Positions 45,970 through 55,918 of a stretch of DNA of 64,000 bases are shown in pieces. Every line of letters begins with the position of its first letter. Within the stretch, counting starts at the first letter, position 1. Under the pieces are notes generated by a model that was given only the letters and a program-made list of their open reading frames with translations, had not been told where the DNA came from and did no database searches. Position numbers and translations under genes: made by a program. This DNA comes from an uncultured virus (IMG/VR IMGVR_UViG_3300047561_001544) (taxonomy: Duplodnaviria > Heunggongvirae > Uroviricota > Caudoviricetes): the IMG/VR virus record IMGVR_UViG_3300047561_001544. The stretch is one strand, 5' to 3'.

Positions 45970-46424
45970 GGGGGTGAAAGGATTCGACCTGAGACTGAAT
46001 CTAAAAGCGCATGTAGAAGTTAATCGGTGGCTTCTTTAAAACCGATTAAAAAATTAAGAGCAGATAATACTGACTCCATCTTGGCTGAAGCCGAACATAT
46101 CTTCAACAATGCTGACGAATATCTCGTTGGTTTTGAAGACGAAATGCTCTTAGCAGCCTAAGATCCTTTAACCTAGATCCTCTAAGGGTTAATTGATAGC
46201 AGAGGTTGTTGAATTGTGGACTATATCAACGTAACAAAAAGAATCCTTCGTATGTAGATTTGCGATAATAATCTATAGGCAGACTTAAAACTCGGTTAGT
46301 GTCGCCAAGCAGCCTAAAGTCTTCGTTACCGTATGGTAGCTGAAATGCTAAAGACATTAAAACATGTAGACCTTTTAGATAATGTGTCAAGGGACTCGGC
46401 TATCGTAGGCCGACACCTCCACCA
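45970..46424 (+). ncRNA. ssrA: tmRNA
   Basis: 5' GGGGGTGAAAGGATTCGAC, 3' CACCTCCACCA with G3:U70; tag ORF 46060-46161 ADNTDSILAEAEHIFNNADEYLVGFEDEMLLAA*. Confidence 0.95.
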
Positions 46425-46705: not shown

Positions 46706-47197
46706 ATGCCTATTTGTCAAAAATGTGATTCACAATTTTCAAATCGACTTAGAATCGATGGTAAAATTAAAAACGTCCATAATCGTAAGTACTGCCTTCA
46801 GTGTTCTCCGTTCGGTCAACATAATACTAAACAATTAGTTTTAAAAGAAAAATCAGATAAAAAATGTATCTGTAGTGTTTGTAATAAGGAATATATCTAT
46901 AGTAGAAAGAAGGGGAACTCTTCTATTAGATGTAACAGTTGCTATGTAAATCAGTTTAGGGCTAATCGTAAGGAAAAAGCTGTTAAACTACTTGGTGGTC
47001 AATGTTGTAAATGTGAATACAATAAATGCATAAAAGCTTTACAATTCCATCATATTGATCCAAAGAAAAAAGACTTTGAAATTAGTTCAAATAGTAGTAC
47101 AGTATCTTGGTATAAATTAGAAAAAGAAATTTCTAAGTGTATACTAGTATGTGCTAATTGTCATGCTGAAATTCATGATGGTATTACAGAGATGTAG
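46706..47197 (+). CDS. HNH homing endonuclease (Cys-rich)
   Basis: Multiple CxxC; LQFHHIDP..K...KCILVCANCHAEIH. Confidence 0.9.
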   Translation: MPICQKCDSQFSNRLRIDGKIKNVHNRKYCLQCSPFGQHNTKQLVLKEKSDKKCICSVCNKEYIYSRKKGNSSIRCNSCYVNQFRANRKEKAVKLLGGQCCKCEYNKCIKALQFHHIDPKKKDFEISSNSSTVSWYKLEKEISKCILVCANCHAEIHDGITEM

Positions 47198-48664: not shown

Positions 48665-48738
48665 TGCCCTCTGGGGGAATTGGTAGACCCAGCGGCCTTT
48701 GAAGCCGCATTTTCTTGGTTCGAGCCCAAGGGGGGCAG
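48665..48738 (+). tRNA. tRNA-Gln(TTG)
   Basis: GCGGC-CTTTGAA-GCCGC, U1-A72, G73. Confidence 0.9.
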
Positions 48739-48748
48739 CTTTTTAAAC

Positions 48749-48821
48749 ACTCCTATAGTTCAATTGGTTAGAACGGTCTGTTTATAACGGACGAACCTTG
48801 GTTCAAATCCAAGTAGGAGTA
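48749..48821 (+). tRNA. tRNA-Ile(TAT)
   Basis: GTCTG-TTTATAA-CGGAC, ACTCCTA/TAGGAGT, A73. Confidence 0.88.
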
Positions 48822-48859
48822 CTATATGTGTAATATAACTTAACAATTTTATTAAAAAT

Positions 48860-49054
48860 ATGACAGCATCATCTAAACCTAATAAAAAATCTAAAGAATA
48901 CGTATCTTCAAGAGGATGGTCAGAAGAATGTATAACAAATATAAAAAAAATACAGGATGAATTTTTAGATCGTTATTACGACGATAAAGAAGAAAATACC
49001 GCAATACTTAAACTTTTGCAACAATTAGTGGAAAGATTAGAAAAAAATATTTGA
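48860..49054 (+). CDS. hypothetical protein
   Basis: 64-aa ORF. Confidence 0.5.
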   Translation: MTASSKPNKKSKEYVSSRGWSEECITNIKKIQDEFLDRYYDDKEENTAILKLLQQLVERLEKNI

Positions 49055-49086
49055 CTTTTTGCTAAAAAGAATGTATTAATATATAA

Positions 49087-49292
49087 GATCTGGCAGTAGT
49101 AAACCTTTCCAGATCGGGATTTGCTCTCTTTGCCTGTTAGTGTGTTGGGGGTGCTCATCCTACGCTAGTCGAGCTAGGCTACATAAAGCTATGACGCTAT
49201 GCATTGTTCAATACAGGCTTTGACGTTGATAGGTCTGCGAAACTCGCGGACGCTTCGTTGAGGAAGGGACAAGTTCTAGATCAAAACCTTTC
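49087..49292 (+). ncRNA. candidate structured non-coding RNA of unknown family
   Basis: GC-richer intergenic stretch behind a TTGACT promoter-like site; nested helices with G:U pairs on + strand. Confidence 0.6.
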
Positions 49293-49313
49293 AAATACTA
49301 TTTTAAAAAAGAA

Positions 49314-49342
49314 TTGACATCCCCACCACATTTATATATAAT
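49314..49342 (+). promoter_or_regulatory. consensus sigma70 promoter
   Basis: TTGACA-17nt-TATAAT, 8 nt before ATG 49351. Confidence 0.8.
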
Positions 49343-49350
49343 ACAAGACT

Positions 49351-49875
49351 ATGATGAAATATATCAAAATCGCAGTAGTCATGTTGGTAACGACTGGTTC
49401 AGTCATTGCTGGCAGTGATTTTAAATCAAATAAAAACGTTATTGAAGACACTTGTCGTTTTCGTGACACCGAACTTCAACTTGACCTTTTCGGTACTGGT
49501 GGATTCTATCAAGAGGGTAATCCAGGATGGGGCGGTGGTGCTGGACTTAACGTATTCTTTCTCAAGTATATCGGCCTTGGGGTAGAACAAAGTTTGGCAG
49601 CGCGTAATGACGCTACAGAATGGGGTACTTTTGGTAATCTGTTCTTGCGTTATCCAATTTGTGGTTGGAACTTGTCTCCATATGTTATGGCTGGACTTGG
49701 CGCGGTTTACGGTTCTAATAATGACGCAGTCCTAGCTGGTACTGTTGGTGGCGGATTGGAATACCGATTCACAGATAATATCGGTATTTTTGCTGATGCG
49801 CGTTGGCTTTACAATGCCGAAGCTAGTGATAGTGGCGCAGTCTTGGCGCGTACTGGATTGAAGTTTGCTTTCTGA
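49351..49875 (+). CDS. outer-membrane beta-barrel protein (8-stranded, porin-family-like)
   Basis: Signal peptide, amphipathic strands (SPYVMAGLG, GGGLEYRF), C-terminal GLKFAF BAM signal. Confidence 0.88.
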   Translation: MMKYIKIAVVMLVTTGSVIAGSDFKSNKNVIEDTCRFRDTELQLDLFGTGGFYQEGNPGWGGGAGLNVFFLKYIGLGVEQSLAARNDATEWGTFGNLFLRYPICGWNLSPYVMAGLGAVYGSNNDAVLAGTVGGGLEYRFTDNIGIFADARWLYNAEASDSGAVLARTGLKFAF

Positions 49876-49897
49876 GCCAAATCCCATTCAAGAAACT

Positions 49898-49932
49898 AAT
49901 AATGGGTCTAGAAATAGGCCCATTATTTTTTT
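49898..49932 (+). terminator. intrinsic terminator
   Basis: AATAATGGGTCTA-GAAA-TAGGCCCATTATT plus T run. Confidence 0.85.
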
Positions 49933-51589: not shown

Positions 51590-51916
51590 ATGAAAACCTG
51601 CGTGTATTGTAAAATTGAAAAAGATATAGGAGAGTTTCCTAAACACTCTTTATATAAAGACAATTTAGATATGCGTTGTAGAGATTGTATAAAAAAACAT
51701 GTTAAAGTTAGGAAAGAGCTTCATAAGAACGCGCCACCAAAACCCGAATTTTGCGAATGTTGTGGCAAAATTCCGCGCAAGTGGTGTTTAGATCACGATC
51801 ATAAAACTGATAAATTTCGTGGATGGTTATGTGATAAATGTAATACTGGCATTGGTAAATTGGGTGATGATTTAGAGGGTGTTATGAAAGCTGTTAAATT
51901 TTTAAAGAGGGTGTAA
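51590..51916 (+). CDS. endonuclease VII-family homing endonuclease
   Basis: CxxC motifs, LDHDH.T..FRGWLC..CN.GIG.LGD. Confidence 0.9.
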   Translation: MKTCVYCKIEKDIGEFPKHSLYKDNLDMRCRDCIKKHVKVRKELHKNAPPKPEFCECCGKIPRKWCLDHDHKTDKFRGWLCDKCNTGIGKLGDDLEGVMKAVKFLKRV

Positions 51917-51983
51917 TGGCACTGACTTCTAATCAGTACGCGCATAATGGATGATGCAGGTTCGAATCCTGTCACCCTCGCCA
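51907..51983 (+). tRNA. non-canonical tRNA-Arg(TCT)-like RNA with relocated D-arm elements
   Basis: GAGGGTG/CACCCTC-G-CCA, ACTGA-CTTCTAA-TCAGT, GCAGG-TTCGAAT-CCTGT; 7-nt linker instead of D-arm; 18-nt segment containing AATGGA after anticodon arm. Confidence 0.8.
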
Positions 51984-52328
51984 ATGTCTTAACCTATGAC
52001 AATTTGAGCAAAGAAGAACCGTTTTATCTAATTCTAAAAATAATTTATTTTTATTTATTTGTCTCATTTTAGTCCATTCGAATTTTTTTTGTTTTGGGTC
52101 TAAATGATGAAAATCAAAAATACATGAATTTGTGCCATCATATTTTACTAAACAGTCACAACATTGATTTCCTTTATAATCTAAGGCCACAATTCTTCTA
52201 GATTTCCATCTATCTGCAACATATTTATTAAAACAGTCTTTACAGTAGCTTTGTAATCGTTTTTTATTTTTAATATAAAAATCAGTTTCATTTTTAAAAT
52301 TTTTGCATTTTGAACATTGGATCATCAT
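51972..52328 (-). CDS. HNH homing endonuclease
   Basis: CxxC motifs, FDFHHLDP..K...LLCSNCHRLRH. Confidence 0.88.
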   Translation of the reverse strand: MMIQCSKCKNFKNETDFYIKNKKRLQSYCKDCFNKYVADRWKSRRIVALDYKGNQCCDCLVKYDGTNSCIFDFHHLDPKQKKFEWTKMRQINKNKLFLELDKTVLLCSNCHRLRHWRG

Positions 52329-55831: not shown

Positions 55832-55918
55832 GGAAGCGTACTCAAGCGGTTTACGAGAGAAATTTACTAAATTTCCGAGGTCTAAAAGCCTCCGTGGGTT
55901 CGAATCCCACCGCTTCCT
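55832..55918 (+). tRNA. tRNA-Ser(ACT)
   Basis: GGAAGCG/CGCTTCC, GAAAT-TTACTAA-ATTTC, long variable arm GAGGT/GCCTC. Confidence 0.85.

Follow-up and report, generated by a model that had tools for sequence, protein, structure and literature searches.

We describe a structured RNA encoded at positions 49087–49300, + strand, of a 64,000-nucleotide (nt) stretch of DNA from an uncultured virus of the Caudoviricetes (IMG/VR record IMGVR_UViG_3300047561_001544), the whole of which we refer to as the window. Comparison of homologous sequences indicates that the RNA belongs to a family which is real, is absent from Rfam 15, and has a conserved, covarying, strand-specific and multi-pseudoknotted core. 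The fold is unusually intricate for an RNA of approximately 215 nt. We consider it reasonably probable that the element is a stable RNA of approximately 214 nt, which serves as a self-associating scaffold or decoy in the transfer RNA (tRNA) islands of large uncultivated phages. An initial annotation of the window had suggested a novel phage non-coding RNA in the tRNA region, and this part of it agrees with the conserved, covarying and strand-specific family outside Rfam 15 that we find.

The RNA sits in a 296-nt gap between an open reading frame (ORF) at 48860–49054 (64 residues) and another at 49351–49875 (174 residues). The phage has a low GC content, and most of the sequence flanking the RNA is at 0.21–0.30, whereas positions 49100–49249 reach 0.48–0.49, which is a tRNA-like level. 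The only ORFs overlapping the stretch are 27–60 residues long. Across the homologues no frame is open: the longest stop-free stretch drops to 23 residues in some members, and the element varies from 208 to 221 nt by differences that are not multiples of three. These lengths and stop-free stretches exclude a conserved small protein gene. The raised GC content and the lack of a credible ORF, both remarked on in the initial annotation, thus hold up. Covariance models R1–R3, described below, match window positions 49084–49302 at 226–285 bits, and the boundaries of the RNA fall where conservation ends and, in homologues, where flanking tRNAs lie.

Homologues were obtained by several routes. Relatives of the gene that follows the RNA in the window, a β-barrel-like gene, gave eight viral loci, of which one (L001) holds the RNA stretch at 93% identity in the same place; in another (L008) a copy of 70% identity (E 8e-13) follows the gene and lies immediately 3′ of the tRNA-Cys of a cluster of 13 tRNAs. 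A pattern made from the invariant core found 14 viral contigs and 16 metagenome contigs, 15 of the latter being real, and a second, independent and looser pattern found 26 loci, namely the same 14 viral contigs and 12 chance matches. The pattern hits L060 and L089 were rejected as chance matches. Relaxing the pattern gave one more distant member (L088, 110.7 bits). When five whole related records were searched with the covariance model, exactly one copy was found in each of four, one of them complete at 211,587 bp with terminal repeats, and a 16%-complete fragment had no copy; the covariance search also gave more divergent copies. The nearest record, G001 (a 24%-complete fragment), is without the element. 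In total the family comprises 28 distinct sequences that are 47–98% identical and form nine clusters at 80% identity. The window copy is 95–98% identical to three members and 54–77% identical to the remaining ones. An exact 20-mer of hairpin P5 gave no matches in viral contigs because P5 is too variable. With blastn, three family members had no match among 50,697 phage records, and the window neighbourhood had only HNH endonuclease and tRNA similarities in the phage records.

The sole match to the invariant-core pattern among 185,579 species genomes is locus L068 (CALBDR010000183.1, 7,176 bp), where the element lies among tRNAs and scores 211 bits with R3. The metagenome-assembled genome is labelled Candidatus Melainabacteria; L068 is probably a phage contig binned with it, and gives a weak host hint at best.

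The initial annotation recommended a search of Rfam and a test of covariation among homologues. No family was found, and the element stays novel: in the window none of the 4227 models of Rfam 15 overlaps it at the gathering score or, over 48800–49500, at E ≤ 10, in keeping with the earlier remark that RNase P and riboswitch signatures are missing. Searches of 15 related loci at thresholds of E ≤ 1 or E ≤ 0.5 likewise gave no match over the element, riboswitch, ribozyme and RNase P families included. Neither ARAGORN nor Rfam called a tRNA-like or tmRNA-like domain in 49084–49302, and a tRNA-like element and a piece of a tmRNA were set aside on this basis; a group I intron was also rejected.

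For the structure, a seed model was made from the window's clade with helices read from alignments, all members were realigned to it, and the model was rebuilt twice. Pairs were counted on the model-based alignments of the 28 distinct sequences. In the 64 pairs of the model, 96.3% of alignment cells form a standard pair, compared to 35–40% when the 3′ partners are slid by 1–3 columns, and 39 of the 64 pairs show changes on both sides, compared to 10–13 in the slid controls. None of 500 shuffles equalled the observed pairing and covariation values, and an alignment of 24 sequences gave the same picture. The features of the RNA are as follows, with both-side changes given as a fraction of the pairs in each helix.

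49087–49300, + strand: whole RNA, approximately 214 nt, extending from where H1 begins to the final paired base of the 3′ tail.
49087–49115, + strand: 5′ hairpin H1, GATCTGG (49087–49093) with CCAGATC (49109–49115); both-side changes 6/7, 99% of cells paired.
49096–49100, + strand: segment GTAGT of the H1 loop, probable intramolecular kissing partner of GCTAC (49178–49182) in the P3 loop.
49116–49120, + strand: 5′ strand GGGAT of pseudoknot PK1, pairing with ATCCT (49157–49161).
49132–49137, + strand: 5′ strand GCCTGT of P2, pairing with the 3′ strand ACAGGC (49213–49218); both-side changes 1/6.
49138–49143, + strand: 5′ strand TAGTGT of pseudoknot PK2, in the bulge between P2 and P2b.
49144–49148, + strand: 5′ strand GTTGG of P2b, pairing with the 3′ strand TCAAT (49208–49212); both-side changes 2/5, 95.7% of cells paired.
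49157–49161, + strand: 3′ strand ATCCT of PK1, inside the P2/P2b domain.
49164–49202, + strand: irregular hairpin P3, 49164–49175 with 49187–49202; both-side changes 5/11, 97% of cells paired.
49222–49259, + strand: P4, putative pairing of GACG (49222–49225) with CGTT (49256–49259), enclosing P5; both-side changes 0/4.
49233–49251, + strand: hairpin P5, GTCTGCG (49233–49239) with CGCGGAC (49245–49251); both-side changes 7/7, 99% of cells paired.
49263–49292, + strand: hairpin P6, GAAGGG (49263–49268) with CCTTTC (49287–49292); both-side changes 6/6, 98% of cells paired.
49295–49300, + strand: 3′ strand ATACTA of PK2, the last six bases of the 3′ tail, pairing with TAGTGT (49138–49143).

Across the aligned sequences, compensatory change was shown to support H1, P2, P2b, P3, P5, P6, PK1 and PK2. 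PK1 changes on both sides at 7/8 pairs, with variants GGUAAG/CUUACU, GAAUAAG/CUUAUUC and GAACAAG/CUUGUUC. P2 is unchanged in 25 sequences; the three most divergent have GCUUGU/ACAAGC instead (UA at pair 53/151, against CG in the other 25). PK2 is paired in 94.6% of cells with both-side changes at 1/6 pairs (pair 58/245 is AU in 25 and GC in 3), and UAGUGU/AUACUA is replaced in divergent members by UGGUG with ACCA. Through PK1 the 5′ linker is held in the core, and through PK2 the 3′ tail; the two helices are thus pseudoknots, and the RNA is locked at either end. The core contains many invariant unpaired bases, and the loop of P3 has a conserved stretch of 11 nt, AGGCTACATAA, which contains GCTAC (49178–49182). 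An all-against-all column scan, in which 232 column pairs passed, mostly driven by kinship, pointed to a contact of GYAGY in the H1 loop with GCURC in the P3 loop. This contact is paired in 97% of cells, and the H1 loop probably kisses the P3 loop within one molecule. RNAalifold on a MAFFT alignment recovered only part of the fold, with H1, P4 and P5 misaligned; realignment to the covariance model was required.

The 60 intramolecular pairs contain 167 G-U cells but only 8 A-C cells. As G-U is far above A-C, pairing works only on the + strand, which is the tRNA strand. This argues against a DNA-level element, which was rejected.

Of the helices drawn in the initial annotation, four are real, namely H1 (GATCTGG/CCAGATC), P2 (GCCTGT/ACAGGC), P5 and P6 (GAAGGG with the 3′ CCTTTC), and three are not conserved. 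Pairing is formed in 60% of cells for the proposed closing stem GGGATTTG/CAAGTTCT, in 63% for GAAGGG with the 5′ copy of CCTTTC, and in 83% for TAGTGT/ACGCTA, the last with no both-side change; taken jointly, 199/500 shuffles reach the pairing observed for these three. The conformational switch suggested there does not survive the comparison either, the competing pairings being confined to near relatives of the window and showing no covariation. The shared GATC and the duplicated AAACCTTTC are peculiar to the window's clade and two others. In most members the beginning of P3 offers a partner for the first four bases of TAGTGT, and a transient alternative pairing of this kind is conceivable. 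The annotation had also called the RNA 6S-like, which would imply binding to RNA polymerase. The size, at approximately 200 nt, is indeed shared with 6S RNA. The fold is different: the conserved core has neither a long closing stem, the one drawn being formed in only the 60% of cells just mentioned, nor a central bubble, and searching at E ≤ 10 gave no match to a 6S family. We regard a 6S-like function as extremely unlikely.

The loop of P6 is 18 nt long in the window (ACAAG-TTCTAGAT-CAAAA) and has the family form ACAA-N-hexamer-N-CAAAA, in which the hexamer is self-complementary.

49275–49280, + strand: palindromic hexamer TCTAGA in the P6 loop, at which a symmetric kissing-loop dimer contact is proposed.

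At this place in the P6 loop, 28/28 sequences have a core that is self-complementary over 6 nt or more (8–10 nt in some). The hexamer takes the forms UCUAGA (or UCUAGG, with G-U), UCCGGA, CCUAGG and CUCGAG, and all three inner palindrome pairs covary (UA 13, CG 12, UG 3; CG 24, UA 4; UA 18, CG 9, other 1). In L012 the hexamer differs at four positions from that of its close relatives L014, L022 and L053, and is still self-complementary. When P6 loops are shuffled, 17% of trials yield a self-complementary window of at least 6 nt at any position; the real palindrome keeps a single position in all lineages. The best intramolecular partner of the P6 loop falls at scattered positions, from 18 to 162, and the loop therefore has no conserved internal partner. 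Because adjacent bases of one chain cannot pair, pairing of the palindrome would be between molecules. It is likely that the RNA forms a symmetric kissing-loop homodimer via the P6 palindrome. Our criterion (a palindrome in 28/28 sequences with three covarying pairs) is the same indirect one as that of Kretsch et al. (PMC12286853), the available text of which takes palindrome switching in loops L9.3 of OLE and L21a of GOLLD as intermolecular pairing, and reports symmetric kissing-loop bridges at both by cryo-electron microscopy (cryo-EM). Kissing loops and palindromic pairing are described as the commonest RNA dimer contacts in the accessible part of a recent review (PMC12990946).

The palindrome could instead be the site of a dimeric protein or a site at the DNA level, in which case the RNA would be monomeric with no RNA–RNA contact. 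TCTAGA, TCCGGA, CCTAGG and CTCGAG are classical restriction-type palindromes, which we count in favour of this explanation, and the dimer contact is a predicted one. A protein site would be expected to be conserved, however, yet there are at least four different palindromes with self-complementarity kept throughout, and the outer pair tolerates a G-U wobble, which is an RNA feature. We consider a monomeric RNA improbable. The predicted homodimer recalls the dimerisation initiation site of HIV-1, where a purine-flanked hairpin loop carries a 6-nt palindrome that switches between subtypes. The HIV-1 site differs in being part of a genome packaging signal, not a separate small RNA, and there is no homology.

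Locus L075 has, approximately 520 nt downstream of its full copy, a partial second copy (L075:1585–1715, with two masked N letters within), of which there remain only the P6 hairpin with the tail, a hairpin resembling P5, and a 5′ part resembling a hairpin. The palindrome is CCUAGG in the partial copy and UCCGGA in the full copy, and the arrangement hints at duplication or module exchange.

Several points weigh against the fold and dimer proposed above. The structure was derived from, and the alignments were fitted to models of, the same sequences, which favours the structure; because these sequences are moreover related, the argument rests on the size of the gap to the slid controls, and the shuffle counts overstate significance. 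The minimum-free-energy fold of the single sequence is no better than that of shuffles (z = −1.1 on the + strand and −0.8 on the − strand). A single sequence does not prove the structure, and the case therefore rests on the homologues, most of which came from patterns requiring the conserved core; the spread of the family may be larger than sampled. P4 is invariant in 28/28 sequences, so that its pairing is putative. L064 is without the 3′ strand of P6, and the outer palindrome pair is G-U in three sequences. The contact between the H1 and P3 loops has only one clean covarying pair (14/100, with CG 13, UA 13 and UG 1), and 88% of its cells also pair in the +3 slide control. Lastly, neither a tRNA nor a terminator sets the 3′ end of the RNA in the window, where only an A/T-rich run is followed by a promoter at 49314–49342.

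The genomic context of the RNA is consistent from locus to locus. The phage of the window has its own DNA polymerase, UvsX-like recombinase, DnaB-like helicase, primase, ribonucleotide reductase and clamp loader, and its tRNA island extends over approximately 40.2–55.9 kb, with everything on the + strand: 11 tRNAs called by ARAGORN, 11 Rfam tRNA matches and one tmRNA. In 20 loci with flanks of 0.6–0.9 kb, Rfam gave 81 matches, every one a tRNA on the strand of the element, and 19/20 loci have at least one. The RNA starts 5–9 nt after the 3′ end of a tRNA (...GCTCCA) in 11/28 distinct sequences, and the distance to the preceding tRNA is 9–10 nt in L073, L077, L085/86 and L055; a tRNA starts 5–9 nt 3′ of the RNA tail in L014/L077, L015 and L070/L076. 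From this arrangement we infer that the RNA is transcribed together with the tRNA-island genes. The following site was found upstream of it in the window, and includes the promoter-like TTGACT to which the initial annotation had drawn attention.

49051–49079, + strand: promoter-like site, −35 TTGACT (49051–49056), 17-nt spacer, −10 TATTAA (49074–49079).

The site ends 7 nt 5′ of H1, and its −35 hexamer overlaps the stop codon of ORF 48860–49054. A consensus promoter scan did not list it, its second hexamer ending in A. In 10/28 distinct sequences, that of the window included, TTGAC(A/T) occurs 33–34 nt 5′ of the model start, and the same ten have a TAnnnn box after 17 nt, which ends 7–8 nt before H1. 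We infer from this fixed spacing that 49051–49079 acts as a sigma-70-like promoter of the RNA in the window's clade.

We propose that the RNA would be transcribed with the tRNAs, with its own sigma-70-like promoter in the window's clade and the 3′ end of a tRNA upstream in other clades. Host tRNA-processing nucleases would free it, RNase P acting at the next tRNA and 3′-end trimming at the previous one. It should resist exonucleases because both termini are buried. The P6 loop would be exposed and, with its palindrome flanked by A-rich runs, would pair with the same loop of a second molecule, so that two copies would form a symmetric kissing-loop homodimer or be bridged within a larger assembly. 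We would guess that such a scaffold or decoy, of RNA only or of RNA and protein, is made during infection, as suspected for ROOL and GOLLD, and that its most plausible role is to sequester a host factor that takes part in tRNA or RNA metabolism or in defence.

In the window the RNA lies directly upstream of the β-barrel-like gene, which might suggest a cis-acting leader or riboswitch of ORF 49351–49875. Between the two, however, stands the promoter at 49314–49342, which matches the consensus at 12/12 positions. In L008 the RNA is downstream of the gene, L002–L007 have no copy within 3 kb upstream of it, and the next feature after the RNA is a tRNA or other small RNA in most loci. These contexts contradict a leader, and we give this explanation almost no weight. 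As for the gene itself, it has a weak outer-membrane β-barrel signature, a GC content of 0.45–0.49 compared to approximately 0.27 for the phage, relatives in eight viral contigs at 61–98% identity, and a terminator-like hairpin at 49898–49927 just before a tRNA-Gly. It looks like an acquired cassette (window 49314–49927) that is expressed independently.

Location within tRNA transcription units would also suit a ribozyme or a processing RNA for the tRNA-island transcript, either self-cleaving or acting on neighbouring tRNAs. The compact multi-pseudoknot core and its many invariant unpaired bases are in line with this, as is the pairing of a 3′ tail ACCA with UGGU in divergent members, which recalls the contact of the tRNA CCA with RNase P RNA. 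However, a promoter or flanking tRNAs account for the termini, there is no cleavage-site signature, and no ribozyme or RNase P model matches over the element at E ≤ 1. Such a role is in our view quite improbable.

Among known RNAs, the closest likenesses are with GOLLD and ROOL, which we take to be RF01998 and RF03087. These are likewise phage-encoded, often near tRNA islands, multi-pseudoknotted, and without known protein partner or function. The location is shared: same-strand tRNAs lie within 0.9 kb in 19/20 loci, and the window has 11–12 tRNAs and a tmRNA. Assembly through kissing loops is a further likeness, which for the window RNA is proposed only; in GOLLD, palindrome covariation marks L21a as a symmetric loop, according to the available text of PMC12286853. 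There is no match of sequence or model, and hence no homology was found. GOLLD and ROOL are also 3–4 times larger, at approximately 580 to more than 800 nt compared to approximately 215 nt, and form 8-mer or 14-mer cages, whereas the window RNA has one symmetric loop, for which a dimer is the minimal reading. OLE is found in bacteria, namely extremophilic Firmicutes, and is associated with protein. Its loop L9.3 is a symmetric kissing loop in which the palindrome switches yet stays self-complementary (PMC12286853, available text). OLE is neither homologous to the window RNA nor phage-borne.

The small stable RNAs rnaC and rnaD of phage T4 (species 1 and 2), whose function is unassigned, resemble the window RNA in lying in a tRNA cluster, on the tRNA strand and directly after a tRNA, and T4 has a homing endonuclease gene among its tRNAs. 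Both T4 RNAs are described as parts of tRNA-cluster transcripts that tRNA-processing enzymes release. They differ in size (139 and 119 nt) and are not homologous to the window RNA: with filters off, model R3 gave at most 10.2 bits in T4 69000–75000, and over rnaC a single partial match of 1.8 bits. Moreover, rnaC ends in a tRNA-like T-arm, which the window RNA does not have. Fremin et al. (2023, PMC10690425) list, in the accessible part of that work, 8,495 structured-RNA candidates from IMG/VR that are 29–151 nt long; therefore at most a fragment of the ~215-nt RNA could be listed there. Its supplementary tables, as distinct from its alignment archives, contained neither of two 13-nt core strings and none of up to six contig numbers, and a literature search, which covered these supplements in part, found no description of the RNA.

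Of the 15 related loci searched at E-value thresholds, six have a second small RNA, which matches the abiF motif (RF03085) and is located approximately 12 nt 3′ of the element on its strand.

L054:571–607, L019:781–816, L058:572–607, L012:781–816, L013:780–815 and L053:402–437, element's strand: abiF-motif RNA (RF03085).

These matches score 28.4–37.8 bits against a gathering score of 37, so that one of them reaches the cut-off, and approximately 90 conserved non-coding bases come after the motif. No Abi gene is apparent in the tRNA-filled flanks of these loci as annotated with Rfam, ORFs not being called there, and in the window's clade the element has no abiF-like neighbour. The accessible text of PMC12373285 describes the abiF-motif RNA as an antitoxin, which neutralises the AbiF toxin by direct binding. 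The abiF-like motif may thus be a phage-borne mimic of the AbiF RNA antitoxin, and the tRNA islands of related phages may collect counter-defence RNAs.

By analogy, a counter-defence role for the element itself can be put forward, though we hold it to be doubtful. A more specific version, which we offer as speculation that is probably wrong in at least some part, is that the element is a minimal relative in kind of ROOL and GOLLD, 215 nt long, doubly pseudoknotted and palindrome-assembled, working as a counter-defence RNA or a sponge for a host factor; in related phages the element is immediately followed by the abiF-antitoxin-like motif, which would suit this idea. If so, the tRNA islands of large phages would be partly islands of anti-defence RNAs. 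Alternatively, the same fold could be an anti-defence decoy that mimics an RNA bound by a host abortive-infection or RNA-targeting system, for example an RNA antitoxin or a tRNA-like target, and neutralises that system during infection. The abiF-motif neighbours at 6/15 loci, and the possibility that islands collect such RNAs, speak for a mimic. It would leave the palindrome unexplained, however; the element has no link of its own to any defence system, and the abiF evidence comes down to one match at the curated cut-off and is missing in the window's clade. We consider a mimic of this kind unlikely, and return to the self-associating scaffold or decoy as the preferred reading.

The RNAs of tRNA islands (rnaC and rnaD of T4, ROOL and GOLLD) have been of unexplained purpose for decades, and the ornate ones were recently shown to be homo-oligomers. 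The present family is far smaller, at approximately 215 nt, or approximately 430 nt as the predicted dimer, and has well-defined ends. Its fold is pinned by compensatory change in most helices, and the predicted dimer contact could be broken and restored by design. It should therefore be tractable for cryo-EM or crystallography, and offers a route to the role of self-associating RNAs in phages. It also means that Rfam lacks at least one complex RNA class of large environmental phages.

Some further observations concern the neighbouring genes. The tmRNA of the window lies at 45970–46424 on the + strand, 2.7 kb upstream of the RNA (RF00023, 84.5 bits, full length), and was not reported by ARAGORN. 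The two tRNA finders also differ at 51907–51980, which was called by Rfam (39.2 bits) and missed by ARAGORN, and at the tRNA-Gln of 48665–48739, which was called by ARAGORN and is outside the Rfam gathering list. Small ORFs rich in Cys and His lie between the window tRNAs at 46706–47197, 51590–51916 and 51972–52328 (− strand), an arrangement that recalls segB among the tRNAs of T4. Within the first of them, approximately 46991–47180 has 70–73% DNA identity to HNH endonuclease genes of many large phages.

In related loci, a tRNA-like gene (L013:821–891, L018:897–967 and L019:890–960) has a conserved anticodon loop TTGATAA (Ile, GAT) and an atypical T-loop GCAGTAC; it scores 43–45 bits with the Rfam tRNA model and is missed by ARAGORN. 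Directly after the most divergent member, L088:1072–1147 gives a twister-P1 match of 25.8 bits (gathering score 67.2, E 0.046), which is probably noise. Finally, the window has a tRNA-Ser with anticodon ACT at 55832–55918, which recurs in the tRNA islands of L014, L015, L021 and L063; an unmodified A at the wobble position is unusual in tRNA.

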